Assembly (NCBI GenBank): GCA_038227875.1
Contig: JBBRPR010000013.1
Location: 64,001 to 128,000, forward strand
Source of the DNA: Planctomycetota bacterium
GTDB lineage: Bacteria > Planctomycetota > SZUA-567 > H5-PLA8
DNA length: 64,000 nucleotides
Direction: 5' to 3'
Shown here: positions 6,779-64,000 of the stretch, piece by piece
Layout: each line of letters starts with the position of its first letter
Numbering within the stretch: position 1 is the first letter of the stretch
The notes under the pieces: model-generated
Seen by the model: only the letters and a program-made list of their open reading frames with translations
Databases searched by the model: none
Told to the model about the DNA's origin: nothing
Translations under genes and position numbers: made by a program

Positions 6779-6808
6779 CGCAAGCAAGGGATTTATCAAC
6801 GGGCTGCG

Positions 6809-7945: not shown

Positions 7946-8851
7946 TTACTTCCGCTTCTTGAACAGTCGATTCAACAATCCGCCGGGACCTTTCGGCGTA
8001 TCCTGATGGACCACGCGTTCCAGGTCGTCGGCGAGGTCCGATCCGTCGCGGTAGCGCTTGTCGGGTTCCTTTTCCAGGCACCACAGAATCACGCGCTCGA
8101 GTTTCAAGTCGACGGTCGTCCTCATTTTGCTGGGCGGACGCGGAGGCAGGCACATCGCCATCTGCATCGTTTTCCAGGACGTTTCCGCGACGAACGGAGG
8201 CTTGCCGGTGACGAGATGGTACAGAATCGCGCCGACACTATACACGTCCGTCGCGTCGGTCAGGCGGGCCTCTTCGCCGCGCGCCTGTTCCGGGCTCATG
8301 TACGCCGGCGTGCCGACGATGCTCTGTACGTGTGGATGAACCTTCGAGCCCTTCTGCCAGCTCAGGCCCCAATCGAGCACGAACGGTTCAGTTTTGGGAT
8401 TGATGAGAATATTGCGCGGCTTCAAATCGCGGTGGATCAGCCCCTTGGAATGTGCATGCCCCAGCGCGCGGCTGACTTTTACCATGGCTTCGAGCAGGAA
8501 GGGCAGATCGACGCTTTTTTCGGTGGCGACGGCGTCCAGGCTTTTGCCTTCGATGAACGGGAAACTCAAATACGGAACGCCGTCCACTTCCCCCCGCTGC
8601 CGCAGCGCAATGATGTTCGGGTGCGAAAGCAGGCGCAGCCGCCAGGCTTCCTCCTCCATTTGCTTGCGTTGCTCATCCAGCGGCGCGGCATCCGAGGGAG
8701 CCAGTAATTTTAATGCGACAAACGCCCCATCGCGACTGTCGCGCGCGAGGAACACCGCCGCACGCGGGCCTTTTCCAATTTCCTTTTCGAGCGTGAATGG
8801 GCCGAATTCGCGAGGGAAACGGTTACGGTCTGCACGAATCCGGTGGGGCAT
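7946..8851 (-). CDS. Soluble Hanks-type Ser/Thr protein kinase
   Basis: VALK, HPNII, IHRDLKPRNIL, DWG, GTPAYMSPEQ, DVYSVGAILY; kinase domain only. Confidence 0.9.
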   Translation of the reverse strand: MPHRIRADRNRFPREFGPFTLEKEIGKGPRAAVFLARDSRDGAFVALKLLAPSDAAPLDEQRKQMEEEAWRLRLLSHPNIIALRQRGEVDGVPYLSFPFIEGKSLDAVATEKSVDLPFLLEAMVKVSRALGHAHSKGLIHRDLKPRNILINPKTEPFVLDWGLSWQKGSKVHPHVQSIVGTPAYMSPEQARGEEARLTDATDVYSVGAILYHLVTGKPPFVAETSWKTMQMAMCLPPRPPSKMRTTVDLKLERVILWCLEKEPDKRYRDGSDLADDLERVVHQDTPKGPGGLLNRLFKKRK

Positions 8852-8926
8852 GATGCTTGATCTTCCAATTCAGACGGGCCGCATGCCGCTCGATAGTATC
8901 CGCTTTTCCGGCTGTGGGAACAGGTT

Positions 8927-45326: not shown

Positions 45327-46145
45327 TCAGGACGCGACGCGTTCCACCGCAAGCAAGCGACGCTGCCGCGCCAGCCGTTCGGCGGGCGTCGTGTTCTTGC
45401 TCGAAAGTCCCGCACCCAGGCGCCGCAATTCCTCGCTCCGCGGCGGCGTGTAGACATCCAGCAGCAGGCGCTGCCGCCGTTTGAGCGTCTCGGCCGAGGC
45501 GTAAAGCTCCGTCACCTTCTCGCGCGTGATGCGCATCGCCACCGTGTCCGCTTCCTTGAATCGAGCGTCGCGCACCGGCTGGCCAAACGGCACGAACCCC
45601 AGGCACCGCTCGTAGAAATGCTGGTGCGACGGCTTGAGCGTCACAATCGCGTCGGTCGCTTGAGTGAAGTGCAGCAGGAACAGCGTCGCCTGCCGGAACA
45701 TCTGCAGAAACACTTTCGACGACGTCTTCTCACGCTCCAGGCTCACCGCCAGCGAACACACTTCGCACGGCGAGCGGCCGAGGCTGCGCAGCGCCTCCAA
45801 TTCGTTCGCGTAGAGGCTTTCCATCGGCAGTCCGCGCGCCGAATCAGTCACCACGGAAACGGTGCCGTGAACCACATGATCCTCGCGCGCGATGAAGACA
45901 GTCGCCTGATCGAAGCTGTGATGCTCCGTAAAGAACGGCTGCGACTCGCCGTGGCTTTCATCGAGATACCCCGCCTCGCGGTACATCCGCGCGACCAGCA
46001 TTCCGGCTGCGTAACGCTCACCGGGCGTCGTTGCCATGCTCACATCCAAGCCGGGATTTTGGCACTCACGCGGACTAAGCCGATCGCCAGTCTGAGCATG
46101 AAGGGCGAGCGATTGAAGCCGCTGGGAGATTCCGGTGGTCTGCAT
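45327..46145 (-). CDS. FeeM-like N-acyl amino acid synthase (GNAT-fold N-acyltransferase), copy 1
   Basis: LVARMYREAGY, GTVSVVTDSARGLPMESLYANELEALR..CEVCSLAV, VTLKPSHQHFYERCLGF. Confidence 0.78.
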   Translation of the reverse strand: MQTTGISQRLQSLALHAQTGDRLSPRECQNPGLDVSMATTPGERYAAGMLVARMYREAGYLDESHGESQPFFTEHHSFDQATVFIAREDHVVHGTVSVVTDSARGLPMESLYANELEALRSLGRSPCEVCSLAVSLEREKTSSKVFLQMFRQATLFLLHFTQATDAIVTLKPSHQHFYERCLGFVPFGQPVRDARFKEADTVAMRITREKVTELYASAETLKRRQRLLLDVYTPPRSEELRRLGAGLSSKNTTPAERLARQRRLLAVERVAS

Positions 46146-46282
46146 GGCGCCTCACTTTCCGGGAAATTGAGTTGTCGTTACTACCACACCAGTCCGACCC
46201 CGCGTGCCTTCCGCCCACAAATGGAAAATACAAAAACTGTAAATCTGATAGGTGCACGTGGGCAAAAACGCGTACGAAAATG

Positions 46283-46313
46283 GATATAATTATATCATAG
46301 GGACTATAGTCCC
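46283..46313. promoter_or_regulatory. Two adjacent perfect 14-bp palindromes (GATATAATTATATC; GGGACTATAGTCCC), candidate operators
   Basis: At 46283-46296 and 46300-46313, in the AT-rich spacer upstream of the FeeM-like gene. Confidence 0.6.
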
Positions 46314-46331
46314 CATGTTGACTTTTGACCC

Positions 46332-47162
46332 TCAGGACAGTTGGCCACAAGTTTCGGCGACGCTCCAGCTCACCGGATCAACGACCACCATCGCCGGCGC
46401 CAGCGGCACCGCTTCCCCCCTTATAAGGTGGACGAGCAACGAAGCCGTCAGCGACGCCGCCGAGAACGTCCCCGCGCCGAGCTGTGAAATCGGACACGGC
46501 TTGCGATCCCGAATCTGCGCGAACTGCGCGTGCACGACTTCCGCGACATACGGCGGCAGCCCGTCGCCCAACTTCGCCAGCGCTTCCAAAAAGAGCGCCG
46601 AATACGTGATGCCTTCCGGCACGTCGCCGTCTTTCAGTCCGACCAGATCGTGCAGCGACGCGCCGCCCTTGTTCGGATCGAACACCAGCGCCGCGCTGCC
46701 CCACCCCGCGGCCACCGGCGAGATGATCGGAATCCCGCGCCGCCGCGCTTCGCTGTGCAGCGCCAGGATGGCCGACGCGTCGAGAAAATCGATGCTGTCG
46801 ACGATCACGTCAATCTCTTCCATCAGCGCGGGGATATTCCCGCCGTCGAGCATGCACGGCAACGCTCGCGCATGAATGTCCGGATGAATCGCGCACAACC
46901 GCGCCGCCAGCCGTTCGGCCTTGTTGCCGCCGACGTCGCTGAAATCAAAAAGCTGCCGGTTGAGGTTATGGACGTCGACGCTGTCCCCGTCGGCGACGGT
47001 GATCTCGGTGAAGCCCGTCCGCGCCAGAACCTCGGCGATCACGCTGCCCAGGCCACAGCCGGCGACCAGCACGCGCGCACGGCGAATCTTCTGCTGCACG
47101 TCCTGGCCGAGAAAACCTGTATTGCGGGAGGTCCACGTCGCGTATTCGGCGGTCGCATGCAT
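46332..47162 (-). CDS. ThiF-family adenylyltransferase (non-canonical, no Zn CxxC), copy 1
   Basis: SRNTGF..QQKIRRARVLVAGCGLGS, ADGDSVDVHNLNRQ, NKAE, VIVDSID, PISQLG. Confidence 0.88.
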   Translation of the reverse strand: MHATAEYATWTSRNTGFLGQDVQQKIRRARVLVAGCGLGSVIAEVLARTGFTEITVADGDSVDVHNLNRQLFDFSDVGGNKAERLAARLCAIHPDIHARALPCMLDGGNIPALMEEIDVIVDSIDFLDASAILALHSEARRRGIPIISPVAAGWGSAALVFDPNKGGASLHDLVGLKDGDVPEGITYSALFLEALAKLGDGLPPYVAEVVHAQFAQIRDRKPCPISQLGAGTFSAASLTASLLVHLIRGEAVPLAPAMVVVDPVSWSVAETCGQLS

Positions 47163-47188
47163 GGGGCAGTCTCCAAAAAAGGTGAACG

Positions 47189-48655
47189 TCAGTTGCCGTA
47201 GGTGATGCGCAAATTGTCGATCAGAAAATTCGCGCCGTAGATTTCATAGAACTCGACAGACTTCGCATCGGTCCACGCGGGCGCCTTTGATTCTTCGAGG
47301 TAATCGCCGCGCTGCACGCCGTCGTAAAGCGAACGGGTGATGACGACGCCGTGGTCTTCGCGCACGGTCCGTTGGACATGAATCCAGACGCCGCCCTTCC
47401 ACGTCGTCGGCACGGTGTCCTTCTGAAGTTTCAGAATGTCACGGGTCGGTCCGCCGGCATTGCGGCCGGTCCAGATCCCGATGCTCATGGTGTTGGGATC
47501 GAGCACCCAGAGCTCGAATTCAAATTTGACCGGCAACTGCGTGACGGGAATGCCAGTCTTCAGAAACAGACTCGCGCCAGAGGCCGGAAACTTCAGCGCG
47601 CCCGACCCATCCTTGCCGGACTTGGTCACGAAAGTCGGCAGCGGGAAGTTGGCGCGCAGTTCGCCACTCGCCCAATGCCCCCGGTCGACAAATTCCGCCC
47701 CAAGTCCCGTGTCGAAATTCCAGTTCAACACCGTCGGCGCCGGGACGGCCGGAACTGCCGGAACTGCCGGAGCTGCCGGCGTTGGCAGGGCTGCCGGGGC
47801 GACCAGCGGAGCAGGCGGCGCGGAAGGCGTTCGAGTTAATGCGAATACTCCAGCCGCCGCGAGTGCCACGGTGACGGCCGTCGCGGGCATCCAGCTCCCC
47901 GTTTTGCCCGCGCGCGCCAGCCGACCTGTTCGTTTTGACAGTTCGCGGGCCGCATGCATTCCGGGACCGTCGAGACGGCTGAGAATCTTCGCCGTCAATT
48001 CCGGCGGGCAGGTGTGGCCGCCACGCGCGGCTTGCGTCAGCGCTTCCATGCTCGCCCCGGCCAGCGGAATCGCCGCCGCTAGTCCGGCACGCGTAAGACT
48101 GGAACGGAGACGCTCCAGCGCCTTCTGAATTTTCTCCGTCACGCTCGAGCGCGAGAGGCTGAACGTTTCCGCGATGTGCTGGTGCGTCATGTTCGCACCG
48201 TAGCAGCACGTCAGGAGCTGGCATTCCAACTCCGGAAGCGTGTCGAGATGCTGGCGCACCGCCGCGATCAACTCCGCGTTGGCGGCGGAGTCGGCACCGG
48301 AAGACTGCAGCTGGTTGCGCTCCGCGCTCACCCGCTCCTCCCGCTTGGCGCTCTGGTTCAGGCTGCGGCGCAGATCGATGCTTTTGTGGATGATGATTCC
48401 CATGATCCAATTCTCGGCATTGCCACGTTGTTTGGGGAGTGCGGACGGCTCAGTCAGCCAGATGGCGAGCATCGCGTCCTGGACGGCGTCTTCAGCGAGT
48501 TCAGACTTTCGCAGAATGCGCACGGCGAAGCTGTACGCGCGGTCGCGGTGGCGTTCACACAACTCCGTGAACGCCGCCCGGTCGCGCCGCGTCGCGATGG
48601 CCTCCAGCAGTGCCGCGTCCTCAAGTCCGCTCATGTCCGCCTGGTTCCTGTCCAT
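47189..48655 (-). CDS. ECF sigma-70 factor with TM helix and C-terminal extracytoplasmic domain, paralog 1
   Basis: DRAAFTELCERH..AEDAVQDAMLAIW (region 2), region 4 HTH, TM helix, Pro/Ala linker, beta-rich C-domain. Confidence 0.85.
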   Translation of the reverse strand: MDRNQADMSGLEDAALLEAIATRRDRAAFTELCERHRDRAYSFAVRILRKSELAEDAVQDAMLAIWLTEPSALPKQRGNAENWIMGIIIHKSIDLRRSLNQSAKREERVSAERNQLQSSGADSAANAELIAAVRQHLDTLPELECQLLTCCYGANMTHQHIAETFSLSRSSVTEKIQKALERLRSSLTRAGLAAAIPLAGASMEALTQAARGGHTCPPELTAKILSRLDGPGMHAARELSKRTGRLARAGKTGSWMPATAVTVALAAAGVFALTRTPSAPPAPLVAPAALPTPAAPAVPAVPAVPAPTVLNWNFDTGLGAEFVDRGHWASGELRANFPLPTFVTKSGKDGSGALKFPASGASLFLKTGIPVTQLPVKFEFELWVLDPNTMSIGIWTGRNAGGPTRDILKLQKDTVPTTWKGGVWIHVQRTVREDHGVVITRSLYDGVQRGDYLEESKAPAWTDAKSVEFYEIYGANFLIDNLRITYGN

Positions 48656-48685
48656 TGTCTTCGTCTTTCAACAGTGTCTCGGAAC

Positions 48686-48719
48686 CGATCGCGAGTTGGT
48701 CGGAAGAAAGTTGAAAAAT
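48686..48719 (-). promoter_or_regulatory. Conserved upstream motif shared with 56152-56185 (probable ECF autoregulatory promoter)
   Basis: ATTTTTCAActtTCTTCCGaCCAACTcgCgATCG; 27/34 identical to the element upstream of ECF paralog 2. Confidence 0.6.
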
Positions 48720-48740
48720 CTTTTCAGGCGGGCGAAATAC

Positions 48741-49805
48741 CTATGACCGGGGGCGGGTCAGCAACGCCTGTTTAAAGCGTTCCAGCAGCTCTTCAGTGTA
48801 GCAGGCCCGCGCCGCACACCGCAGCAGATTGTGCCGGGGCTCTGACGGATATTTGAAGTAAGGCGCGACCAGGCCGAAGGTTACCAGATGCGCGGCCAGT
48901 GCCGCGGCTTCGTGTTCATCTTTGAGCATCAGCGCGACAATCGGCGAATCCGGACAGACTACGCCCAACCCCGCCGTGCGCGCCGTCTCCCGCATGAACG
49001 TAGCGTGTTTCCACATTTTCTCGCGCAGACCGGGCTCAGTCCGCACGATTTCCATCGCCTTAACGCACGCCGCCGAGATCGGTGGCGGCGGCATCGACGC
49101 GCCAGAATTGTGCGACGAACGCCGGTACTGCTCCACGCGTTCGCGGCTGCCGAGCAGGAATCCACCGTTACATCCCAGCGCCTTGCTCATGCTGCCCAGA
49201 ATCACCGCGTCATTGGGCTGCAACCCGCACGCTTCCGCCGCGCCGCGTCCGGATTTTCCCAGCGCGAAAACGCCGTGCGCATCGTCGATGAACAATTCCG
49301 CGCCATGCGCCTTGGCCACGGCATAAAGTTCCTGCAGCGGCGCGACCTCGCCGCTGATGCCGTAAACACCGTCGGTGGCGACAATCGGTGGCGGTCCGGA
49401 ATGCGCGGCAAGCTGACGCTTCAAGTCCGCGGCATCGAGGTGCTTGAAACGCCGGATCGTGAATCCGGCCGACTTCATGCCCATGTACTGATTGGAGTGC
49501 ACCGTCTCATCGCAATAAACGGTGTCAGATTTCGTCCGCGCAACTTCGTAGTACACGGCGCCGCCCAAGTACGTCGCGCCGAGAATACAACTGTCCTCCG
49601 CGCCAAAGTACGCCGCCAGATCGGACTCCAGGCGTGCATGAATTTCCGTCCAGCCCAGCGCCCAGCGGGAGCTCATCGACGACACCCCGTGCCGCCGCGC
49701 GCCCTCGTACATGGCATCCGCCAGGCGCGGATCGCCCGCCAATCCGAGGTAATCGTTTCCAGCGAACGCGGTTTTTCCGGGCGTCAGAGCGATCTGCGGC
49801 GGCAT
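48741..49805 (-). CDS. PLP-dependent alpha-oxoamine synthase (BioF/Kbl/SPT family), divergent
   Basis: FAGNDYLGL, HARLE..LA, FKHLD, TDGVYGISG, FIDDAHG, GSMSKALG (PLP Lys). Confidence 0.85.
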   Translation of the reverse strand: MPPQIALTPGKTAFAGNDYLGLAGDPRLADAMYEGARRHGVSSMSSRWALGWTEIHARLESDLAAYFGAEDSCILGATYLGGAVYYEVARTKSDTVYCDETVHSNQYMGMKSAGFTIRRFKHLDAADLKRQLAAHSGPPPIVATDGVYGISGEVAPLQELYAVAKAHGAELFIDDAHGVFALGKSGRGAAEACGLQPNDAVILGSMSKALGCNGGFLLGSRERVEQYRRSSHNSGASMPPPPISAACVKAMEIVRTEPGLREKMWKHATFMRETARTAGLGVVCPDSPIVALMLKDEHEAAALAAHLVTFGLVAPYFKYPSEPRHNLLRCAARACYTEELLERFKQALLTRPRS

Positions 49806-53306: not shown

Positions 53307-56003
53307 ATGCGCAAAATTCTGATCGGCTTGGCAATGCTGGCGTTCGCTACGTCGGCTTTCGGAGCCAGCCAGGACTTAAGCCCGCTCATGCCCCCGCCGA
53401 TGGACCAGAAATGGCCGCTGGTTCCCAGCTGCGGCAGCTGTACGTTCGGCTACGCGCTCAAGACATACTACGAGGGCCTCGACCGGGGCTGGAGCGTGCT
53501 GACGCCCAATCACCAGTTCGCGCCGAACTACCTCCACAATCAGGTGCAGTATCAGGAAGGGCTGGGCATCAACGAAGGTGAACGCAATTGCTGGATCATG
53601 GCCAACCGCGGCATTTGCACGCTGGCCGATGAACCGTACACGACCGATCAGCTCACGTGGCCCACCGCCGCGCAATGCCAGGCCGGTTTGAATTATCAGA
53701 ACGACCTGATCGGCGGGCTGCCCTACGGTTCGATCGTGGGCTACGATTCCGTCACCCGCAAACCCAATCTCACCAACATCCGCGCGGCGTTGGACCAGGG
53801 CAAGGTGCTGGGCATGTACTTTGTCTACTTCAACGGTTTTGAGACGCTGAGCAGCGCGACGAATTATGTTTACTACTCCGTCTACCAGAGCGGCACCCAG
53901 ACTTACCATTGGATCACCATCGTCGGCTACGACGACACGCGGACCGACGGCACCGGCCACGTGGGCGCGCTGAAGGTTCAAAATTCATTCGGAGCGACAT
54001 GGGCCGATCACGGCTATGGCTGGATCGCTTACGACGCGTTGAACTACGCGAGCATGCCGGTCGCCAACACGCAGGGAAAATTTTACTACCTGAAAAATCT
54101 GCCCGCGACGTACGTCTCGACCCTTTCAGCGCGCATTTCGCTCAATCATCCGCTCGTCGCCGGAACGCGCATCAGCGTGGGCGTCGGCGACATCGCAGCT
54201 CCGTCCTGGACGCATACGTTCTACGATTTCACTCCCGATTACTTCACCGACCTCGCCGATCCCGTTCACGCCAATTTCTCGACCGTGGTCGATCTCACCG
54301 GCGCCAGCGCGTTCTGGCCGCCGTCGGCAGCCCGGCCGTGGTGGGTCAAAGTCGAAGACCCGTTGACCGATGGCTTGACCGGTACGATCACTGAATTTTC
54401 CGTGACGCAAGGCGGCACAACGTTCTCCACAAAGACGCCGCTGCCGGTCAGCATTCCCGACACCGGATCGGCCTACGCCTACATCTACGGCAATCGCCCG
54501 CCGGTGATCACGTCCGCGATTTCAGCCACGCCCAACCCGGCCAAGGTCGGCCAGACCGTCACGTTCTCTGCCGCCGCGACCGATCCAGACGGCGATGCGC
54601 TGACCTACAGGTGGACGTTCGGCGACTCCGCGACGCAAACCGGCGCGACGACCTCGCACGCCTACGCCGCGCCGGGCGTCTACCCGGTCACCGTCACCGC
54701 CACCGATGGCGGCGGACTTTTCGCGACAACCTCGGCTTCGGTCACCGTCACGGCGCTCGCGACGCCGGTCGTCATCACCACTGCATCGCCGCTGCCCAGC
54801 GGCACCGTGGGCACCGCATACTCGTTGCAATTCACGGCCTCCGGCGGTACGCCGCCGTATCACTGGTCGTCAATCGATCCGCTCGGACTCGGCGCGCTGC
54901 CGCCCCCCGGATTGGTGTTCTCAAACGGCGGCTTATTGCTGGGTACGCCGAAAACCGCCGGCACCTACAGTTTCATGATTGGCTGCAACGACAGCGCCAG
55001 CGGCAGCGCATCGGCCACCGTTACGATCACCATCAACTCCGCGCCCGTCGCGCCCTCGATTCAGACGCAGCCGTCGAACGCCACCGTGATCGCCGGACAG
55101 ACCGCGACCTTCAGCGTCGCTGCCACGGGAACAGCGCTCACCTATCAATGGTTCCGCAACGGCGTCAACATCGCCGGCGCAACGGGTGCGTCGAATACCA
55201 CGCCGGCGACCACGGTCACGGATAGTGGTTCCACCTATTACGTCGTCGTGAAAAATACCTTGGGCAACGTCACGAGCGCCACGGCCACGTTGACGGTCAA
55301 TCCGGCGGTACAACCCGTCACGATCACCACCGTCTCTCCGCTGCTCAGCGGCACCGTGGGCTCGGCCTACCGCTTGCAATTTACGGCGACGGGAGGTACG
55401 GCGCCGTATCAATGGTCGTCGATCGATCCACTGGGGCTTGGCGCGTTGCCTCCGCCCGGCATGCTCTTCTCCACCGGTGGTCTGCTTTTGGGAACTCCGA
55501 AGACCGCGGGCACATACTCGTTTATGGTCGGTTGCCGCGCTTCGTCCGGTGGTTCGGCCACGGCCACGGTTACGATCACCATTAACGCCGCCAAGCCGCT
55601 CACTGTTACTGCTCTTCAGGGCAGCGTGAGCTTCGTGGCGAGCGGACGCGACACCGCTTCCGTTTCCGGCACGATTCCCGGATCGTCACTGCTTGCCACG
55701 AACGGCCAGTCGATCAGTTTGAATCTCGGTGGCGTCACGCAGTCCTTTGTGCTGGACGCGAAGGGGCATGGCAAGTCGGCCAACGGCATCGCCACAGTTT
55801 CGACCAAAGGCGGCCGCACGACGTTTACCGCGAAGCTCCACTCGGGCTCGTTTAAAGAAGCGTTTGGTCTCAGCGCATCGCACACGTCGACCAAGTCCCG
55901 GACGACGCTGACCGTCTATCTCGAAGTGGGCGGAGAAACCTATGCGTCAGACGTAAACGTGTCGTGTCTGACCAAGACGAGCGGCGGAAGTTTTAAAAAG
56001 TAG
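53307..56003 (+). CDS. Secreted papain-like (C1) peptidase with PKD, Ig-like and duplicated putative-Ig domains
   Basis: Signal peptide; DQ..PSCGSC (Cys), HWITIVGYDD (His), KVQNSFG..W..GYGWI (Asn); PKD (DPDGDALTYRWTFGD..HAYAAPGVY); I-set-like PSIQTQP..YQWFRNG. Confidence 0.85.
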   Translation: MRKILIGLAMLAFATSAFGASQDLSPLMPPPMDQKWPLVPSCGSCTFGYALKTYYEGLDRGWSVLTPNHQFAPNYLHNQVQYQEGLGINEGERNCWIMANRGICTLADEPYTTDQLTWPTAAQCQAGLNYQNDLIGGLPYGSIVGYDSVTRKPNLTNIRAALDQGKVLGMYFVYFNGFETLSSATNYVYYSVYQSGTQTYHWITIVGYDDTRTDGTGHVGALKVQNSFGATWADHGYGWIAYDALNYASMPVANTQGKFYYLKNLPATYVSTLSARISLNHPLVAGTRISVGVGDIAAPSWTHTFYDFTPDYFTDLADPVHANFSTVVDLTGASAFWPPSAARPWWVKVEDPLTDGLTGTITEFSVTQGGTTFSTKTPLPVSIPDTGSAYAYIYGNRPPVITSAISATPNPAKVGQTVTFSAAATDPDGDALTYRWTFGDSATQTGATTSHAYAAPGVYPVTVTATDGGGLFATTSASVTVTALATPVVITTASPLPSGTVGTAYSLQFTASGGTPPYHWSSIDPLGLGALPPPGLVFSNGGLLLGTPKTAGTYSFMIGCNDSASGSASATVTITINSAPVAPSIQTQPSNATVIAGQTATFSVAATGTALTYQWFRNGVNIAGATGASNTTPATTVTDSGSTYYVVVKNTLGNVTSATATLTVNPAVQPVTITTVSPLLSGTVGSAYRLQFTATGGTAPYQWSSIDPLGLGALPPPGMLFSTGGLLLGTPKTAGTYSFMVGCRASSGGSATATVTITINAAKPLTVTALQGSVSFVASGRDTASVSGTIPGSSLLATNGQSISLNLGGVTQSFVLDAKGHGKSANGIATVSTKGGRTTFTAKLHSGSFKEAFGLSASHTSTKSRTTLTVYLEVGGETYASDVNVSCLTKTSGGSFKK
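54771..55586 (+). repeat. Intragenic duplication of an ~89-aa Ig-like domain (approx. 54771-55037 and 55320-55586)
   Basis: Both copies contain WSSIDPLGLGALPPPG..GGLLLGTPKTAGTYSFM.GC...ATVTITIN. Confidence 0.9.
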
Positions 56004-56067: not shown

Positions 56068-56092
56068 TGCGCGCCAAAAGGCGCGCATTTTT
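56068..56092 (+). terminator. Probable intrinsic terminator after the peptidase gene
   Basis: TGCGCGCC-aaaa-GGCGCGCA followed by TTTTT. Confidence 0.65.
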
Positions 56093-56247: not shown

Positions 56248-57717
56248 ATGGCCGTCCGAGTTTCAAACCTGGCTGGTGCGACCGCGATGGAAACGATGGA
56301 CGACATTTCGTTGCTGAAAGCCATCGCCGAACGGCGGGATCACGCGGCCTTCGCGGAACTCTGCGAGCGCTGCCACAAACGCGCCTTCAATCTCGCCTTT
56401 CGAATTCTGCGCAATCCGGCGGCAGCCGAAGATGCGGTTCAAGAAGCCATGCTCGCGGTCTGGCTCTCGGCAGGTTCGTTTCAGCCGGACCGGGGAAACC
56501 CACAATCGTGGATACTGAGTATCGTGATGAATAAATGCGTCAACTTAGGGGCCGCTCAGCGACAACGCGCCAAGCGCGAGGAGCGTCTGGCCATGGAACG
56601 AAGCAGTCTGGAGTCCGAATCCACATCCCGGATTGAAGACCGGGAGTTGATCGTCACGCTGCGCAGTCACCTCGACCGGTTGCCGGATCTGGACGGCCGG
56701 ATCCTGGCGTGCTGCTACGGCGCCAACATGTCGCATCAGAAGGCCGCGGAATTTCTGGGCATCCCCCGGCGCACGGTCTCCGAGAAGATCCAGCGCGCGC
56801 TCGATTCCCTCCGCGGCAGCCTGTTGAAGGCCGGTGTCGCCGCGGTGGTGCCGCTGCTCAGCGCCGAGAATCTCTTTGAAGCCATGACCACCGGCCACGA
56901 ATGCCCGCCCGGCATGGGTGAACGGATTGTCCGCCACGTCACGTCGGCGGGACGCTCCGCGCGCGCCTTGCCGCGCCGTCCGGTCCCCGCGAAGGGCGGC
57001 ATCGGCATGTTCCTGGCTGTCGGCGCGGTGGCCGCCGTCGCCGTAGGCGTCGTTGCCAGCCGCGGCTATTTCACGCCAACCCCGAATTCCGCCGCGCCGA
57101 CTCTCGCTCCCGCCCCGGACGCGCTGCATCTCCATTGGTCGTTCGAGAAGGAAGCACCTGCCGATCTGCGCGTGTTGCAGCAAAGTTGGACGTGGAAGTA
57201 CTCCGAGGAAAAGAAGACTGGCTACCTCGCCACGCCGTCCGGCGAATCGAACGCCGTCTTCGTGACTCTGCCCTTCACGCTTCCGGCGCAGCCGGTTCTG
57301 ATCCACTCGGAAGCTTTTCTGCCGCTGGAAGGCGTGTTTGCGCTGAGCGCCATGCCGATGCGAGGCAACCAGGTTCTGCCCACGGTACGCTGGCGCACGT
57401 TCTATAATTTGCGCGGAACCACCGTGTCCAGTCTGCAAGTCACGCATCACAGCGACATCTACATTGTCGATCACCACATCGTCCAGTTGCTGGACGGTCA
57501 TGTGATGGAAATCCGGATTGTCCCAGAAGCCGCAACCTCGATCGCACTGGGCATCCGCAATTGGGGCCTGCTGAGCATGGATGTCAAAACCATCAGCCCG
57601 GCGGACCTGCCCGCTCCGCTCAAGGATGTTCCGGCGTTGATTCTAACGATGAAGGAAGGGCCCGAAAAAGAAAACGTGCCCGGCGATCCGCCGCCCAGGG
57701 AGCCCGTCCGTAACTGA
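56248..57717 (+). CDS. ECF sigma-70 factor with TM helix and C-terminal extracytoplasmic domain, paralog 2
   Basis: RDHAAFAELCERC..AEDAVQEAMLAVW; shares AKREER, CCYGANM.HQ, EKIQ.AL..LR.SL..AG and GH.CPP with 47189-48655. Start may be 56287. Confidence 0.85.
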   Translation: MAVRVSNLAGATAMETMDDISLLKAIAERRDHAAFAELCERCHKRAFNLAFRILRNPAAAEDAVQEAMLAVWLSAGSFQPDRGNPQSWILSIVMNKCVNLGAAQRQRAKREERLAMERSSLESESTSRIEDRELIVTLRSHLDRLPDLDGRILACCYGANMSHQKAAEFLGIPRRTVSEKIQRALDSLRGSLLKAGVAAVVPLLSAENLFEAMTTGHECPPGMGERIVRHVTSAGRSARALPRRPVPAKGGIGMFLAVGAVAAVAVGVVASRGYFTPTPNSAAPTLAPAPDALHLHWSFEKEAPADLRVLQQSWTWKYSEEKKTGYLATPSGESNAVFVTLPFTLPAQPVLIHSEAFLPLEGVFALSAMPMRGNQVLPTVRWRTFYNLRGTTVSSLQVTHHSDIYIVDHHIVQLLDGHVMEIRIVPEAATSIALGIRNWGLLSMDVKTISPADLPAPLKDVPALILTMKEGPEKENVPGDPPPREPVRN

Positions 57718-57830
57718 TTAACCGCCCGCCGCCGCGGGAAACAAAACAACAGGGAATAGAACAGGAAAGACACCGTGCGTGTGCTTGATGGAGCCTCATT
57801 GTCCCGCGTTTTCCAAACTAAGGAGCCGCC

Positions 57831-58523
57831 ATGTTCCAGTCGCAGAGTGAAGACGTGCGTACGTTACCGAAGTCCTCGAAGATTTCGCAGGCCTTGCGCG
57901 CCATTCAGCCCAGCGCGATCGGAACCGCCGAAACCGAAAACGTGGCCGAGCCCGAGGTCATCATCCGTCCGATTCTCGGCGAGCACGAACTCGATCGCGT
58001 CTATCAACTGACCTACGACGCCTACGTCGAACGCGGGTACTGCGAAGAACACCCGTCGCGCCGGCTGATTCATTATCCGCATCTCGACCGTATCCCCGAG
58101 ACCACGGTCCTGGTCGCGGTCGTGGACGGCAAGATCGTCGGCACCAATTCCTGGACCTTGGACGGGCCCAATGGTCTCCATGTGGACAAGGATTTCCATG
58201 CGGAGACCCGCGTCGTGCGCAGCGAAGGCCGCCGCCTGGCCGCGTCCTGGCGTATCGCCACTTCAAGTTGCTTCCGGGCCGAACGCAAAGTGGTCATGGC
58301 GCTGATTCAGCAGACCTGCCAGGGAATCGTCGCCGCCAACGTGGACACCTCGATCTTCACCTTCAACCCACGGCACGAACGCATTTATCAGCGCCTGCTG
58401 AACATGAAGACCATCGCGACCAGCGCGGGCACCAACGGTCTGCGCAATGCGCCCGCCGTGTTGATGCGCCTGGACCTGAAGGACTTGCCGGAACGCTGGC
58501 TGCAGCCCATGTCCGTCGGTTGA
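57831..58523 (+). CDS. FeeM-like N-acyl amino acid synthase (N-acyltransferase), copy 2
   Basis: VYQLTYDAYVERGY, TTVLVA..IVGTNSWTLDGPNGLHVDKDF, FTFNPRHERIYQRLL, APAVLMRLD; AAGGAG RBS. Confidence 0.78.
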   Translation: MFQSQSEDVRTLPKSSKISQALRAIQPSAIGTAETENVAEPEVIIRPILGEHELDRVYQLTYDAYVERGYCEEHPSRRLIHYPHLDRIPETTVLVAVVDGKIVGTNSWTLDGPNGLHVDKDFHAETRVVRSEGRRLAASWRIATSSCFRAERKVVMALIQQTCQGIVAANVDTSIFTFNPRHERIYQRLLNMKTIATSAGTNGLRNAPAVLMRLDLKDLPERWLQPMSVG

Positions 58524-58654
58524 TGAGAATTTAAAACATTTCTTTGGTCAAACCGGGCGCAGCTGGTTTTGCATAGTGGAAGACAGTCGTAACTCACGTT
58601 TTAGATCGGGAGTCGCCAGGAAACGCACAATGTAGTTCAACGGAGCCGTTCATC

Positions 58655-59608
58655 ATGCCCAGCAGCGCGGTTTTCGAATACGACAACGCCTTCGCCCGCA
58701 ACCTCGGGTTGGTCAACGTTGATGAACAGTCCCGCCTGCGCCAGACCCGCGTCGGCTTGCCGGGACTAGGCGGCGTCGGCGGTGCGCATCTGCAGGCGCT
58801 GGCCCGCATGGGCATCGGGGCGTTTCATCTCGCCGATCCGGATACGTTCGACGTCGTCAACATGAATCGCCAGCTCGGCGCGTCGATGAACACCGTCGGA
58901 CGCTCCAAGGCGGAAGTCGTCGGCGAATCCTTGAAGACCATCAATCCCGACGCGCAGGTCGAACTCTTCCGCGACGGCATCAACGCACAGAACATCGATG
59001 CTTTCTTGGATGGCGTCGACGTCGTCGTCGATGGACTGGAGTTCTTCCGCATCGAAACGCGGCGCATGCTCTACCGCGCCTGTCGCGAACGCGGCATTCC
59101 GGTCGTCAACGCCGGCCCGATCGGCTTTGGCGCGGCAGTGCTGGTCTTCATGCCCAACGCGATGTCCTTCGACGAATACTTCCGCATCAACGACGCGATG
59201 ACCCGCGCCGAACAGTTGCTCGCGATGGCGCTGGGACTGGCGCCCGGCCTGGTCAGCGATGTCGATCCCGCGCGCGTCGACGTGGAGAACGAGAAGGGCC
59301 CCGCCCTCGCATCGGCCTGCTTTCTCTGCGCCGCCGCCGCTGCGACGGAAGTGCTCAAGCTGGTCTGCGGTCGAGGACGGGTCACCGCCGCGCCGCGCGG
59401 CATCTACTACGATCCATATCGCGGCAAAACCGTCCGCCTCCGCCCGCGACCCGCGTTGACCTCCAGCCTGCGCGGCCGGGTCCTGCGCTGGATGAGCTTC
59501 CGCCGCTTTCCCGCTTTCCGCACCATGCACGAGCGTGAATTGCTCGAGCGCAAAAACATTCGCCAGCTGGATCTCGAGGCTGCCTCCCATGCCGCGCCAA
59601 CGGTCTGA
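58655..59608 (+). CDS. ThiF-family adenylyltransferase (non-canonical, no Zn CxxC), copy 2
   Basis: FEYDNAFARNLGLV..EQ.RL, GLGGVGG, ADPDTFDVVNMNRQ, SKAEV, VVVDGLEFF, AGPIGFG, MSFDEYF, GPALASAC. Confidence 0.9.
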   Translation: MPSSAVFEYDNAFARNLGLVNVDEQSRLRQTRVGLPGLGGVGGAHLQALARMGIGAFHLADPDTFDVVNMNRQLGASMNTVGRSKAEVVGESLKTINPDAQVELFRDGINAQNIDAFLDGVDVVVDGLEFFRIETRRMLYRACRERGIPVVNAGPIGFGAAVLVFMPNAMSFDEYFRINDAMTRAEQLLAMALGLAPGLVSDVDPARVDVENEKGPALASACFLCAAAAATEVLKLVCGRGRVTAAPRGIYYDPYRGKTVRLRPRPALTSSLRGRVLRWMSFRRFPAFRTMHERELLERKNIRQLDLEAASHAAPTV

Positions 59609-59843
59609 AAAAGAAGTCGATGAACTGATCGCGCTCGCGCGCACGTACTGCGAAATTCGCGCGCGATTGAACGATGCCCCTGCCGATTGGCCGGCCGACG
59701 AACGCACGCGCGCGCACCTCGCCCAGCTCGACGAGAAAATCGCGCTGCTGAACAGCTACAGCGAGCTGGACCGCAAGAAGGCCCGCGCCATCCGCAACAC
59801 CAACATCGTCCAATTGCATCGCACCCGGAGGGCGGCCCGATGA
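59589..59843 (+). CDS. Small coiled-coil hypothetical protein (~84 aa)
   Basis: Overlaps the ThiF 3' end and is ATGA-coupled to the nitroreductase; coding-like codon usage; start uncertain. Confidence 0.6.
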   Translation: MPRQRSEKEVDELIALARTYCEIRARLNDAPADWPADERTRAHLAQLDEKIALLNSYSELDRKKARAIRNTNIVQLHRTRRAAR

Positions 59844-60910
59844 ACGTCATGGAATGCATTCCGCACGTGGCCGCGCCGACACTGCAAAAATGCCTGGCCG
59901 CCGCCGTGCGCGCGCCGTCCGGCGACAACACACAGCCCTGGCGTTTTGAAACGGATGACTCCGCTGGACGCATTTCCGTATTCATCGACGAAACGCGCGA
60001 TTCATCGCCGATGAACTGCGGGCAGACCATGTCGCGCATGGCCTGCGGCGCGGCGGTGGAAAACATCCTGATCCAGGCCGCCGCGGATGGCTGGGCCGCC
60101 TCCGTGGAAGAAGGCTTCGGCAACCACGTCGCCACGATTCAGCTCGATCAGGAATCGCCGCTGAGCCCCGTCACCCGCCAGACGCTGAACGCCATATACA
60201 ATCGCGTCAGCAACCGCCGCCTTTACGACGCCAGGCCCGTGGATCCGCTTGTGCTCTCCACGCTGAATGAATCGACCCCGCTCCTCGACGACGTCCGCAC
60301 GCATTGGTGCACCGAACGCAGCCGCATCAACACGCTTGCGCCGATCATTGGCGCGGCCGACGGCATTCTGTTTGGCGAAAGTTCAATGCGCAATGCCTTC
60401 CTCGCCAACGTCCGCTTCGATCGTCCGGTGAATGAAGAAGTCGACTCCGGTCTTTCGCTGGCGTCGCTGGAGCTCTCCCTGCCTGACCGCGCCGCCATGC
60501 GCATGATGAGTCATATTCCCAGCGTGGTGCTGAAAGCCACCGGCGCTTCGCGTCTCTTCAACCTGCACGCGCGGAAGCTGATCAAGAGCGCCTCCGGCGT
60601 TTGCGCGATCTCTGTTCCAGAAGCACACACGTCGTATTTCCAGGCCGGCCGAGCCCTCCAGCGGGCATGGCTGGTGCTCACGGAACTGGGCTTCGCCGTG
60701 CAGCCGATGATGTCCCTAATGGTCTTGCTGAATGCACTGCATCACGGATCGTCGCAACTGAAGGTGGCACTAGGCACTAAGCGGATAATTGAATTAGCAG
60801 CACAATTTGACACAGCAATTCCGGAATTCACCTGCAGAAAACCCCTGTTCCTGCTACGCTTTGGATACGCCAAATCACCGAGCGGACGGACAGGGCGATT
60901 GCAACCATGA
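59840..60910 (+). CDS. Nitroreductase-superfamily flavoprotein (double-domain, Acg/TyzC-like)
   Basis: AAVRAPSGDNTQPWRF, ACGAAVENI, IYNRVSNRRLY, AGRALQRAWL..TELGFAVQPM, LLRFGY. Confidence 0.85.
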   Translation: MNVMECIPHVAAPTLQKCLAAAVRAPSGDNTQPWRFETDDSAGRISVFIDETRDSSPMNCGQTMSRMACGAAVENILIQAAADGWAASVEEGFGNHVATIQLDQESPLSPVTRQTLNAIYNRVSNRRLYDARPVDPLVLSTLNESTPLLDDVRTHWCTERSRINTLAPIIGAADGILFGESSMRNAFLANVRFDRPVNEEVDSGLSLASLELSLPDRAAMRMMSHIPSVVLKATGASRLFNLHARKLIKSASGVCAISVPEAHTSYFQAGRALQRAWLVLTELGFAVQPMMSLMVLLNALHHGSSQLKVALGTKRIIELAAQFDTAIPEFTCRKPLFLLRFGYAKSPSGRTGRLQP

Positions 60911-62052
60911 TGAGTATTGGATGGCGGAATTTGAAGCGCGATCCCTGGCGCGCGGCCGTCGCCGTGCTCGGGGTTGTCTTCGCTGTCGTCCTGGTCACTG
61001 TCGAAGTCGGCATGCTCATGGGCCTCGTCCGCAACGCCTCGCTCCTGATCGATCAATCTCGCGCCGATCTCTGGGTCTCCACCGTCGATGTGAAAACCTT
61101 CGACTTCGCCACGCCCGTGGACAACCGCAAGCGCTACCGCATCGCGGCTGTTCCCGGCGTCGATCATGTCGAAGAATTCAATGTCACCTACAGCGTCTGG
61201 AAATTGCCCAGCGGCGGAAACGCCAACTGCCAGGTCATTGCCCTCGACGAACACGGCACCCTCGCCCCGCCCTTGAACCTGATCGAAGGCAGTGTGGAAG
61301 CGCTGCACAACCAGGACGCCGTAATCATCGATAAAGGCGACTGCGCCAAGCTGGGCAACATCCACGTCGGCGACACGGTTGAAATCCTCGAACGCCGCGC
61401 CAGAGTCGTCGGGCTGACGCAGGGCATGAGTTCCTTCACCACCACGCCGTATATTTTCACGTCTCTGCGCCGCGGCGAGCGCTACGGATACCTGACTTCC
61501 GATTCCGGTTCGCCCAGCGGCAAGCAGTCGATTTATTTTCTGGTCAAACTCAGTCCCGGCGCCGATCTCGAAACCGTCCGCAATGCCATCACCTCGGGAA
61601 TTCCCGGCGTCGAAGTTCACACGCGCGAGAGCTTCAGTTACCGCACGCGAAAGTATTGGCTGATCGAGACGGGCGTGGGCCTGGGCTTCCTGGCCGCGGC
61701 CGTGCTGGGCTTGCTCGTCGGCGGCGTGATCGTCTCGCAGATTCTTTACGCCATGACCATGGAAAAACTCCCCGAGTTTGGCGTGATGAAAGCGCTCGGC
61801 GCGGGCATGGGTGAAATCTCCCGCGTCGTCCTCGACCAGGGCCTGATCTGCGGCGGCGTCGGGCTGGTCATCGGAATCGCCTGCAGTTATGGCATCGCCG
61901 CGGCGGCAGCGGCGGCGGGAACCACGGTTGAAATTCCCACTGGACTGCTCATCGGCGTTTCGGTGATCACCGCATTGCTGTGTACGTTTGCGTCCCTGTT
62001 TTCAATTCTCCGCTTACGGCGCGTCGAGCCGGGGATGGTGTTCCGCACATGA
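60907..62052 (+). CDS. ABC transporter permease (FtsX/DevC-like)
   Basis: IGWRNL..D..R, ADLWV, periplasmic domain, QILYA..EFGVMKALGA, VEPGMVFR. Confidence 0.9.
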   Translation: MMSIGWRNLKRDPWRAAVAVLGVVFAVVLVTVEVGMLMGLVRNASLLIDQSRADLWVSTVDVKTFDFATPVDNRKRYRIAAVPGVDHVEEFNVTYSVWKLPSGGNANCQVIALDEHGTLAPPLNLIEGSVEALHNQDAVIIDKGDCAKLGNIHVGDTVEILERRARVVGLTQGMSSFTTTPYIFTSLRRGERYGYLTSDSGSPSGKQSIYFLVKLSPGADLETVRNAITSGIPGVEVHTRESFSYRTRKYWLIETGVGLGFLAAAVLGLLVGGVIVSQILYAMTMEKLPEFGVMKALGAGMGEISRVVLDQGLICGGVGLVIGIACSYGIAAAAAAAGTTVEIPTGLLIGVSVITALLCTFASLFSILRLRRVEPGMVFRT

Positions 62053-62795
62053 CCCCCACAATCTCGGTGCGCTCCGTCTCCAAGCACTACGCAGGCGGCG
62101 AATCCTGGGCCGTCCGCGGCATCTCGCTCTCCGTGTTTCCCGCTGAAGTCACCGTGCTGATGGGACCCTCGGGCAGCGGCAAGACAACGCTGCTCTCCAT
62201 GATCGGCGGCGTCCTTACGCCCACCGAAGGCTCGCTCAGTGTCTGCGGCGTGGAACTCAGCGGCTGCGACGAATCGCAATTGCAGAGCTTCCGGCGCGGC
62301 CAGATCGGTTTCATTTTCCAGAGCTTCAATCTGCTCTCGTCGCTGACCGCGCTGGAAAACATTGAACTGGCGCTTTCCCTGCGCGGCAAAGGACCCTCGA
62401 CTGCCGCGGAACTGCTCGACCATGTCGGCCTGGCCGCCAAAGCGCAGGCGTATCCGATGGAACTGTCCGGCGGACAGCGCCAGCGCATCGGCGTCGCACG
62501 CGCGCTGGCCGGCGATCCTCCGGTGCTCCTGGCCGACGAACCGACCGCCGCGCTCGATGCCTTTCAAGGCCGCCGCGTCATGGATCTGCTCCGCACCCGC
62601 GCCCGTGAATCCGGCACGACGGTGCTGGTCGTCACGCACGATCCGCGTGTCCGTGAATTCGCCGACCGCGTGATCGAGATGGAAGATGGAAAACTCAAGC
62701 GCATCGTCCGCCGCGTGCGGCCGGAGCAGGCTGAGGATGGGCAGTGGTTGGTTTCCCGAACCGGCACGATTGTAGCCGAGACTGCGAGCACCTGA
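62049..62795 (+). CDS. ABC transporter ATP-binding protein (DevA/LolD-like)
   Basis: GPSGSGKTT, IGFIFQSFNL, LSGGQRQR, LLADEPTAALD, VVTHD; ATGA-coupled. Confidence 0.93.
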   Translation: MTPTISVRSVSKHYAGGESWAVRGISLSVFPAEVTVLMGPSGSGKTTLLSMIGGVLTPTEGSLSVCGVELSGCDESQLQSFRRGQIGFIFQSFNLLSSLTALENIELALSLRGKGPSTAAELLDHVGLAAKAQAYPMELSGGQRQRIGVARALAGDPPVLLADEPTAALDAFQGRRVMDLLRTRARESGTTVLVVTHDPRVREFADRVIEMEDGKLKRIVRRVRPEQAEDGQWLVSRTGTIVAETAST

Positions 62796-64000
62796 TGGCC
62801 AAAGAGGCCAAAGAACCCTCCGAGTCCACCCCTGCCGCCGCCCCCCAGGCTGCCGCCCATGATCTCATGGACGCGGAAGCGGCTCGTCAGCTCTTGAAAA
62901 TGCCGGCGGCCAAGTTCGAATTGCTCATCTCCACCGGACAGGTACGCGTCTTCCGTTCCGACGGACAGCCGTGCTTCCGCCGCGAAGACATTGCCGCGCT
63001 GGCCTTGAAGCGACAGGCCGCGCCGGCCAAGAGCGCCGCACCGCGCAAAGTTGCTCCGCCTGCGGCTGCTCCCGCCGCACCGGGCGCATCTGCCGCGAAA
63101 TCCTCTCCGCGCAGTGAAGCCGTGAAACCGCCGGCGTCCAAGGCCACTCCTTCCATTCCCAAGCCTTCTGAACCCGACGATATGGAAGAGGAGGAATTTG
63201 AAGAACCGCCGCCGCCCGCGCCGCGCCAGAAATCACGCGCCGTCTCGCGGTTCCTGTTGCCGGCCGCGATCGTGATCGCGATCATCGCATTCGCCTGGAC
63301 CTTCAACACCGCCAGCAAACACAGCGAGCTGCCGATGGCAGTACCGCCGCCCGCGCCGGGAGCTTTCGCCAATTCGAAGGCGGCACCGGGGCTGATCGAA
63401 TCCGTCTCTGGCGAACGCCCGCTCTCCTTTGAGGTAGGTGGAAAAATTCACGCCGTCCTGGTCGAAGAAGGCCAGTCCGTGAATGTCGGCGATACGATCG
63501 CTGAGCTGGAAAACGCGGACCTGAACGCGAAGCTGAAATCCAGCCAGGCCGATTTAAGCGCCGCCGAGGCGAAGCTGGGCATGCTCAATGGCAATCTCGA
63601 GAGCGATCTCAAGAAATCCGAAAGCGAAGTCGCACGGTTGAAGGCCGAAATACTCCTGCTCGAACCCCGCAAGGAAGACATTGAGCGCGCGCGCGCCGAA
63701 ACGGCCGCAACCGAGGCCGACTGCACGCGCCTGACTGAGGACGCCAAGCGCAACGCCGACATCCATGCTCAGAATACGGGAGCGGTGCCGCAGCAACTCG
63801 TCGATCAGACGAAACGGCTCGCGGAAGCAGCCGCCGCAAAATGCAACGCCTCGAAAGCCCAGCTTCACGCTCTGGAAGCCGGTTCGCGTCCCGAGGAAAA
63901 GGATCGTCTCAGTGCCATGCTCGCGAGCGCCGAAGCCGAAGTCTCCCGCCAGAAAACCACCAGCGCGTATCAAATCCAGTCCGTTCAGGCGCAGGTTGAT
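62795..64000 (+). CDS. HlyD/DevB-like periplasmic adaptor with N-terminal HTH-like domain; runs off the right edge
   Basis: Not in the ORF track. TGATG overlap at 62793-62797; MAKEAKE..LMDAEAARQLLKMPAAKFELLISTGQVRVFRSDGQPCFRREDI, Pro/Ala linker, TM helix, APGLIE..LSFEVGGKIHAVLVEEGQSVNVGDTIAELEN (lipoyl-like), long coiled coil. Confidence 0.85.
   Translation, partial: MAKEAKEPSESTPAAAPQAAAHDLMDAEAARQLLKMPAAKFELLISTGQVRVFRSDGQPCFRREDIAALALKRQAAPAKSAAPRKVAPPAAAPAAPGASAAKSSPRSEAVKPPASKATPSIPKPSEPDDMEEEEFEEPPPPAPRQKSRAVSRFLLPAAIVIAIIAFAWTFNTASKHSELPMAVPPPAPGAFANSKAAPGLIESVSGERPLSFEVGGKIHAVLVEEGQSVNVGDTIAELENADLNAKLKSSQADLSAAEAKLGMLNGNLESDLKKSESEVARLKAEILLLEPRKEDIERARAETAATEADCTRLTEDAKRNADIHAQNTGAVPQQLVDQTKRLAEAAAAKCNASKAQLHALEAGSRPEEKDRLSAMLASAEAEVSRQKTTSAYQIQSVQAQVD

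Follow-up and report, generated by a model that had tools for sequence, protein, structure and literature searches.

What does the string of genes at the end of this stretch of DNA make, and what controls it? The stretch, hereafter the window, is 64,000 nucleotides long and belongs to contig JBBRPR010000013.1 of a Planctomycetota draft metagenome-assembled genome (MAG). Its last part carries eight co-oriented genes headed by one for an extracytoplasmic function (ECF) sigma factor. Family assignments and gene linkage suggest that they act as one operon in making a modified N-acyl amino acid lipid, with the membrane-anchored ECF encoded directly upstream as its probable dedicated regulator; we consider this reading probable. 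The locus is composed as follows.

56068-56087, plus strand: terminator-like hairpin of 8 pairs, 7 of them G-C, followed by a T run
56248-57717, plus strand: ECF sigma factor, 489 residues (Pfam and NCBIfam profiles)
57831-58523, plus strand: FeeM-family N-acyl amino acid synthase, 230 residues (PF21926)
58655-59608, plus strand: ThiF-like ATP-dependent enzyme, presumed cyclase, 317 residues, with a single CxxC
59589-59843 (59535-59843 in the list of open reading frames, ORFs), plus strand: conserved small protein without a family, 84 residues
59840-60910 (start at 59687 in the ORF list), plus strand: nitroreductase-superfamily flavin-dependent oxidase, FDO type, 356 residues
60907-62052, plus strand: FtsX/MacB-type ATP-binding cassette (ABC) permease, DevC-like (PF12704 and PF02687)
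62049-62795, plus strand: ABC ATPase, DevA-like (PF00005)
62795-64000 and past the window end, plus strand: HlyD-type membrane-fusion adaptor, DevB-like (HlyD_3 and HlyD_D23)

Gene content, families, overlaps and the recurrence of the gene pairing are direct observations. All eight genes named in a preliminary description of this DNA are present on the plus strand, seven of them identified by profile searches, and the overlaps that it reported from ThiF onward can be read at the junctions, four of 1-4 nt and one of 20 nt. The longest is formed by the ATG of the small ORF at 59589, a start favoured over the listed 59535 by paralogue comparison, which overlaps the ThiF stop. ATGA overlaps follow between small ORF and oxidase (59840, the likely oxidase start as read in the sequence), oxidase and permease (60907), and permease and ATPase (62049), and a TGATG overlap joins ATPase to adaptor (62795). 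Between the end of FeeM at 58523 and the ThiF start at 58655 lies a gap of 131 nt; FeeM itself has an AAGGAG 6 nt before its ATG, and no terminator-like site was seen when one was looked for on the plus strand between the ECF and FeeM genes. The hairpin terminates an upstream PKD/Ig-repeat gene and marks the 5' limit of the locus. At the other end the adaptor gene runs 441 nt beyond the window (to position 10694 of fetched locus L027) and is followed by genes for a tetratricopeptide repeat protein and a sulfatase. The eight-gene locus is a real operon, and its arrangement is not due to chance, since the pairing of ECF and FeeM occurs 16 times in the genome.

That genome (9.34 Mb, 176 contigs, 88% complete) holds 19 FeeM matches above the cut-off, 11 ThiF matches and about 20 long ECFs of 466-533 residues, as found by tblastn with the locus proteins and by Pfam on 20 fetched loci. 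Hereafter C labels denote contigs of this genome, G labels related genomes and L labels fetched loci. An intact, co-oriented long ECF lies within about 2 kb of 16 of the 19 FeeM genes, upstream in 15 cases and downstream in one (C51). The remaining three are a FeeM gene 1.2 kb from a contig end (C83), one with a 97-residue ECF fragment 4 kb upstream (C105) and one with no such neighbour (C95). The tailoring genes, which follow the ECF-FeeM pair or lie inside it, differ among these cassettes. ThiF occurs both with the oxidase and without it; four loci have FAD_binding_4 oxidases and two have methyltransferases, and there are also an EryCIII-like glycosyltransferase, a pyridoxal phosphate enzyme of the beta-eliminating-lyase type, YgaP-like mini membrane proteins and sigma fragments.

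The chemistry has to be read from three enzymes. The FeeM-family protein scores 117.4 bits against PF21926 (cut-off 27, E 6.8e-34), spanning profile positions 2-158 of 158, so that at the profile level the acyltransferase is of the family first proposed for it. Its sequence match to the solved FeeM structure is weak (PDB 2g0b, E 1.4e-3, residues 41-215), and it additionally aligns to the first part of NF011425, a 989-residue family in which FeeM, ThiF and oxidase are fused. FeeM is itself among the closest structural homologues of acyltransferases of the acyl-homoserine lactone synthase type, according to PMC10404671.

The ThiF-like protein scores 162 bits against PF00899 and 356 bits against NF006077/PRK08223 (curated cut-off 266). 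On the ThiF portions of the fusion families it reaches 293 bits (NF011424, 679 residues, ThiF fused to oxidase) and 234 bits (NF011425), and on the canonical ThiF, MoeB and MoeZ models at most 99 bits. Judged from profile scores and PDB sequence matches rather than from a tree, it does not group with the sulfur-carrier activators, the placement that would have spoken against the original proposal. The PDB matches (TcdA 1e-18, ThiF 3e-15, MoeB 2e-12, PaaA 1e-9, MccB 4e-7) are confined to the N-terminal nucleotide-binding part, about residues 12-175. Cysteines occur only at 143, 222, 225 and 238, giving one CxxC where the MoeB/ThiF zinc site has two pairs, in line with the first description. Among the residues that 12 relatives share without exception are the glycine-rich loop, D61, R72/Q73, K85 and D126; in TrzS the conserved aspartate of the adenylation motif is Asp217. 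The oxidase covers the entire oxidase half of NF005901, the Rv1355c family (positions 367-712 of 722, E 3.8e-50), and positions 322-668 of NF011424 (of 679, E 2.2e-47). Against the Acg family NF047509 it scores 135.6 bits (E 2.5e-39), below the curated cut-off of 199, and its only solved relative is Acg (PDB 2ymv, E 4.7e-8). For both enzymes, scores on the fusion families greatly exceed those on the canonical ThiF/MoeB or classical nitroreductase models, and the functional reading is upheld by homology. The ThiF gene moreover adjoins those for the FDO-type oxidase and the N-acyltransferase, as expected of an oxazolone-type ThiF cyclase.

The chemical steps, substrate, product, export and sigma regulation proposed here we infer from homology and gene linkage. 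The FeeM-type synthase would join a fatty acyl group, from acyl carrier protein or coenzyme A, to an amino acid; the flavin oxidase would desaturate the C-alpha/C-beta bond with O2; and the ThiF-like enzyme would adenylate the carboxylate, upon which the amide oxygen would close an oxazolone ring. This ring may be retained; alternatively, it may open and leave an N-acyl dehydro-amino acid, the form found in stieleriacines. Of the complete oxazolone or related N-acyl amino acid pathway first proposed, the homology of the three enzymes upholds the pathway type, while "complete" and "oxazolone" are words to be kept conditional.

Three published systems are comparable. TyzA/TyzB/TyzC of Mycobacterium tuberculosis likewise divide the work among three separate proteins, an N-acyltransferase, a cyclase of the ThiF-like kind and an oxidase of the FDO type, and the oxidase of our locus resembles Acg. 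TyzA acylates Tyr or Phe, TyzC desaturates with O2 and TyzB cyclises with ATP (PMC10404671). The likeness is one of families and published description, and the Tyz system differs in its phylum, in having tyzA divergent from tyzBC, and in its neighbour MmpL9, which is not an ABC transporter and on which the same text offers only speculation. The same chemistry is expected of OxzA/OxzB from Pseudoalteromonas rubra and TrzA/TrzS from mycobacteria, and the ThiF and oxidase of the locus match NF011424 and NF005901. However, in OxzB, a proteobacterial fusion (bioRxiv 10.1101/2020.06.11.147165), and in TrzS, a fusion that performs both steps with cyclisation first (PMC12856293), ThiF and oxidase form one polypeptide, whereas here they are encoded separately with the gene for the 84-residue protein between them. 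The third system comes from the same probable phylum. Clusters with adjacent, separate genes for N-acyl amino acid synthase, ThiF and nitroreductase were reported in 2025 from Stieleria neptunia and S. maiorica and tied to the 2,3-double bond of stieleriacines (PMC12479983). They share all three enzymes with our locus, as well as a methyltransferase with some cassettes of our genome; what they are not described with is the ECF, the conserved small protein, the tripartite ABC exporter and membership in a set of 19 cassettes.

The Stieleria products raise the question of whether a ring is the end product at all. Those seen are N-acyl dehydrotyrosines, and the same paper records no acyl-oxazolones in three compound families from organisms with the enzyme set, Stieleria included. 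The pathway could accordingly end at an open-chain, stieleriacine-like N-acyl 2,3-dehydro-amino acid, the oxazolone being transient or the ThiF activating the carboxylate for another nucleophile; loci in two related genomes, G006 and G012, that retain ThiF with no oxidase also fit this. Against it, the characterised homologues TyzB, TrzS and OxzB give oxazolones, and the window sequence holds nothing that separates the two outcomes. We take the open-chain outcome seriously while leaning away from it.

The small ORF, to judge from its relatives, is a conserved gene. At its start, C49 carries a paralogue (41% identity, E 3e-18), again just ahead of an oxidase and a DevC, and weak matches in G004, G006 and G012 each directly follow a ThiF that follows FeeM. 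The gene is thus directly 3' of ThiF in four of five occurrences; on C49 it precedes the oxidase, and the 189 nt upstream have no evident ThiF coding sequence. Since the G006 and G012 loci read FeeM-ThiF-small-DevC-DevA, with no oxidase, the small protein does not depend on that enzyme. Alignment of the five sequences gives 13 invariant columns and an unconserved C-terminus with no Gly-Gly. Pfam gave no match for any of the five, and a profile search returned 16 clusters of 82-95 residues, both organism-named ones coming from Planctomycetes/Planctomycetota MAGs. An AlphaFold2 model has three helices (predicted local distance difference test, pLDDT, 73.5) and gave no Foldseek match at E <= 0.001. 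ThiF-family enzymes commonly act on small partner proteins, and this, with the position of the small ORF directly after ThiF, would favour reading the two as an E1 and its carrier that serve sulfur transfer or protein tagging and have nothing to do with the lipid enzymes. We strongly disfavour such a pair: the small protein is predicted to be all-helical and has the C-terminus just described, the C49 copy stands before an oxidase with no evident ThiF upstream, and the ThiF itself fits the oxidase-fused families, not ThiF/MoeB, and lacks a second CxxC pair.

The last three genes were initially described as a DevBCA-type exporter. The Dev models are indeed the best-matching families, but all three proteins fall under the curated cut-offs: the permease scores 117 bits against TIGR01185 devC (cut-off 290), the ATPase 232 bits against TIGR02982 (295.8) and the full-length adaptor 95 bits against TIGR02971 (129). 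"Dev-like", judged on these scores, is therefore a resemblance and not family membership. A MacB periplasmic core plus FtsX, an ABC ATPase and an HlyD adaptor in one operon do make the exporter a MacB/FtsX-type tripartite system. It shares with DevBCA and MacAB the coupled string of FtsX-type permease with MacB domain, DevA-like ATPase and HlyD-type adaptor, and differs from them in its gene order (C-A-B), its sub-cut-off Dev scores, the absence of an outer-membrane channel gene from the locus, and an Ala/Pro-rich N-terminal extension of about 190 residues (window 62795-63360) ahead of the membrane helix of the adaptor. By eye, a short segment of the adaptor N-terminus resembles an excisionase-kind helix-turn-helix; it has no Pfam match at E 0.01. 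Complete Dev-like exporters occur in this genome at the window locus and on C9; those on C64, C89 and C105 appear truncated or decayed, and the start of C49 has a DevC match only.

The translationally coupled permease, ATPase and adaptor would move the lipid out of the cytoplasmic membrane, and the nature of the pump bears on what the lipid is for. DevBCA exports glycolipids. With the Dev models TIGR01185, TIGR02982 and TIGR02971 as the best family matches of the pump, the lipid might belong to the cell envelope and not be released as a signal; a sigma factor that senses the envelope would then trigger its synthesis, and the pump would insert it into the outer layers. The oxazolones of M. tuberculosis and Rhodococcus, found mainly in cell fractions (PMC10404671), are consistent with this. 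Nevertheless, we regard an envelope role as unlikely, given that stieleriacines affect the biofilms of other bacteria (PMC12479983) and that nineteen differently tailored cassettes resemble diversified secondary metabolites more than a bulk lipid. Matches of the ATPase extend to MacB (E 1e-51) and to the ATPases of bacteriocin and darobactin exporters, and some marine N-acyl amino acids have moderate antimicrobial activity (PMC12479983); both would suit an antimicrobial product and a MacAB-like efflux pump whose main task is to protect the producer. One pump could export and protect at once, and we consider this account distinctly improbable.

We turn to the control of the locus. The sigma factor matches Sigma70 region 2 (PF04542, E 3.7e-15) and region 4 (PF04545, E 9.6e-9) and scores 84.5 bits against TIGR02937 (cut-off 42.9); with regions 2 and 4 only, it belongs to the ECF sigma factors (group 4). 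Hydrophobicity marks a segment at about residues 251-271. An alignment of 19 paralogues gives the order sigma2, sigma4, a conserved segment with the linker consensus AGxAAxxPL..AE.L.EA...G..CPP, a basic stretch, the hydrophobic helix, a Pro-rich spacer and a C-terminal domain of about 190 residues, the most divergent part (13-27% identity to the window copy among paralogues). Because basic residues precede the helix, we place the sigma core in the cytoplasm and the C-terminal domain outside the membrane. In its AlphaFold2 model (pLDDT 89.1, predicted template modelling score 0.86) this domain is an all-beta sandwich. The best fold match is the galactocerebrosidase lectin domain (VIA-align Z 11.2, root-mean-square deviation 3.4 over 151 residues), followed by a Vibrio sialidase lectin domain (Z 10.1) and a galectin-like Bacillus protein (Z 9.4), with CBM66, ERGIC-53 and DUF1080 among the others; nearly all of the 46 chains at Z >= 8 are lectins, carbohydrate-binding modules or glucanases, and Foldseek gave E 1.5e-4. 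As modelled, the domain has the concanavalin A-like lectin/glucanase fold, a statement about fold that implies no ligand. ESM Atlas matches score at most 0.85 and serve as leads only (a sialidase-like carbohydrate-binding module).

A word-based search with this domain recovered only itself, and its profile found 557 of 1.84 billion representative proteins at E <= 0.001, 61 of them at E <= 1e-30. When 39 were sampled, Sigma70 domains were present in all 13 with at least 484 residues; six of ten with 370-430 residues had region 4 only, and none of 16 under 350 residues had a Sigma70 domain. For the shortest proteins this is the pattern expected if gene calls were truncated. Some proteins of 650-730 residues carry two copies of the domain.

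A cytoplasmic sigma2/sigma4 core tied to an external lectin-like sandwich would probably couple an external cue to transcription of the cassette. Proteolytic release is the usual activation model for membrane-bound regulators. Regulatory C-terminal extensions are a feature of ECF41, ECF42 and similar groups. Like these, the present ECF has a sigma2/sigma4 core with a C-terminal addition and no evident separate anti-sigma gene; it differs in that its extension spans the membrane once and ends in a lectin-like beta-sandwich. The word "acyltransferase" is absent from the main text of the ECF classification 2.0 (PMC7826278).

How widely is this arrangement shared? Any FeeM was found in 13 of 41 related genomes. 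In the sister genus (G004; 24 FeeM and 68 long-ECF matches), 16 of 23 full FeeM matches have a co-oriented ECF within 1.5 kb, counted by eye from two tables. G021 and G028, from another family of the same class, have many FeeM (47 and 13 matches) and no long ECF beside them. Many of the G021 and G028 FeeM stretches occur within longer open frames (600-1200 residues), often with a break near profile position 41-44, which points to FeeM domains that form part of larger fusion proteins or contain an insertion.

A metagenome scan with the ThiF alignment gave 80 loci at 41-70% identity, in 48 of which the oxidase adjoins the ThiF relative. Among the 17 with at least 4 kb on both sides, the oxidase is present in 13, FeeM in nine, at least two Dev-like parts in eight and all three in four; six of the eight match the more specific DevC profile. 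Contig L052, whose ThiF is 62% identical, has the entire order ECF C-domain, FeeM, ThiF, oxidase, DevC, DevA, DevB. The exporter accompanies ThiF more widely than the sigma factor does. When an 8-row FeeM alignment was used to scan metagenomes, 595 stretches matched, none of them confirmed. Of the ThiF relatives at 55-69% identity, seven bear an organism name, and all seven come from Planctomycetota/Planctomycetes MAGs; FtsZ/tubulin had no match in the 88%-complete genome, while 13 of 14 control genomes gave one. Both fit the probable planctomycete origin put forward earlier. A scan of genome contigs with ThiF gave two loci, one being L022, from a MAG labelled "bacterium". There (6276-9940) a response-regulator receiver gene precedes a gene for a 439-residue FeeM/autoinducer-synthase-like protein, both divergent from a ThiF (49% identical to that of the window) and an FDO-type oxidase; the FeeM-like portion can also be read as a response-regulator/FeeM-like fusion accompanied by ThiF and oxidase. 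The regulator is different and the theme the same.

Several results weigh against an ECF-controlled oxazolone operon. The product, transcription and sigma binding at the locus are predictions from sequence. Given Stieleria, in which the same enzyme set is accompanied by no reported oxazolones (PMC12479983), the ring may not be the end product, and the ThiF genes without oxidase in G006 and G012 (genus g7) imply a role for ThiF that does not need desaturation. The exporter proteins lie under the curated DevBCA cut-offs. This ECF is absent from all 17 metagenome loci with ample flanks, which makes the link to the sigma factor lineage-limited. The FeeM, DevA and DevB profiles used in these counts were built from sequences of this genome, those for DevA and DevB from single sequences; the FeeM counts are therefore lower bounds, and a DevA or DevB match may also come from outside the Dev family. 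Upstream of the 19 long ECF genes no -35/-10 dyad stood out: a shared pattern (5-mer, gap of 15-19 nt, 4-mer) occurred in at most four sequences, as it did in shuffles, and no common motif emerged. Mantel tests over 16 pairs gave r = -0.10 (p = 0.70) for ECF against FeeM distances, and r = 0.11 (p = 0.21) for the C-terminal domain against FeeM; there is no sign of co-diversification. Saturation may mask such a signal, the ECFs being 24-50% identical to their nearest paralogue.

A bolder proposal would make each ECF-FeeM cassette its own signalling channel, in which the lectin-like domain reads the exported lipid or a cassette-specific glycan and drives its own cassette. The sensor fold is of a carbohydrate-binding type rather than a typical lipid-binding one, and about four of the 20 long ECFs here, and most of the 68 in G004, are not beside a FeeM. 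Both go against this proposal, which we regard as quite unlikely. For the operon itself, our preferred reading remains a modified N-acyl amino acid lipid under the probable control of the adjacent ECF.

The window holds a second cassette, on the opposite strand, with the order ECF-ThiF-FeeM over 45327-48655 and neither oxidase nor exporter. Its features, and those of the mini membrane proteins found elsewhere in the genome, are the following.

45327-49805, minus strand: second cassette as a whole
48741-49805, minus strand: aminotransferase
47189-48655, minus strand: long ECF
46332-47162, minus strand: divergent ThiF (NF006077 108 bits, similar to its canonical ThiF score)
46075-46350, minus strand: ORF of 91 residues
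45327-46145, minus strand: FeeM
L028, 4046-4384 (C15): PF11127 mini membrane protein
L029, 4091-4402 (C17): PF11127 mini membrane protein
L042, 10554-10892 (C105): PF11127 mini membrane protein

The PF11127 proteins (YgaP-like transmembrane, about 100-112 residues) are encoded just upstream of FeeM in these three cassettes, and between ECF and FeeM in two of them. Other cassettes look decayed, namely those on C64 (L034), C89 (L038), C105 (L042) and C17 (L029), with Dev-like genes present as fragments or fused ORFs. The 97-residue ECF fragment is 64% identical to the window ECF, a TAA breaks the ThiF frame at the end of C17, and ORFs with sigma region 4 only follow FeeM in three loci. Part of this apparent decay may be assembly error in a draft MAG. 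Immediately upstream of the main locus, 53307-56003 encodes a secreted protein of 898 residues whose repeats are of the PKD, He_PIG and Ig types; the gene ends in a strong terminator and is seemingly unrelated to the cassette.

The core chemistry is of a known kind and has already been reported for the phylum. The earlier statement that nothing of the sort had been described thus gives way for the enzyme set, published for the planctomycete Stieleria (PMC12479983); the exporter and ECF context was not found in print. The text of PMC12479983 makes no mention of sigma, ECF, transporter, export or ABC, and the S. maiorica cluster annotation table in the supplement of PMC7293339 contains neither "sigma" nor "ABC". 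Literature searches, in which subscription journals were mostly uncovered, found no paper linking N-acyl amino acid synthase with ECF sigma factors, none pairing N-acyl amino acids with DevBCA, and none on acyl amino acid clusters with an ECF in Planctomycetota. Nor was anything found in print on the sigma factor with a lectin-like sensor, the multiplication of cassettes, the recurrence of the ABC exporter or the conserved small ORF; what appears new is the set of about 19 cassettes, almost every one with a membrane-anchored sigma factor of its own alongside, whose lectin-like sensor is predicted to face outward.

As a class of bacterial lipid, N-acyl amino acids and acyl-oxazolones have gained recognition only recently; they occur in mycobacteria and in marine planctomycetes, where stieleriacines reshape biofilms. 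The locus and its 18 paralogous cassettes offer a natural wiring scheme, from sensor and sigma factor through synthase and tailoring enzymes to pump, in which regulation and export can be tested directly, and the differently tailored cassettes are a panel for finding new lipid structures. They also bring forward two unstudied families, the lectin-like sigma extension (557 representative clusters) and the 84-residue helical protein. Were each cassette a channel of its own, these bacteria would possess a many-channelled lipid signalling network, with about 19 cassettes here and 68 sigma factors in the sister genus, LuxI/LuxR-like but based on sigma factors.

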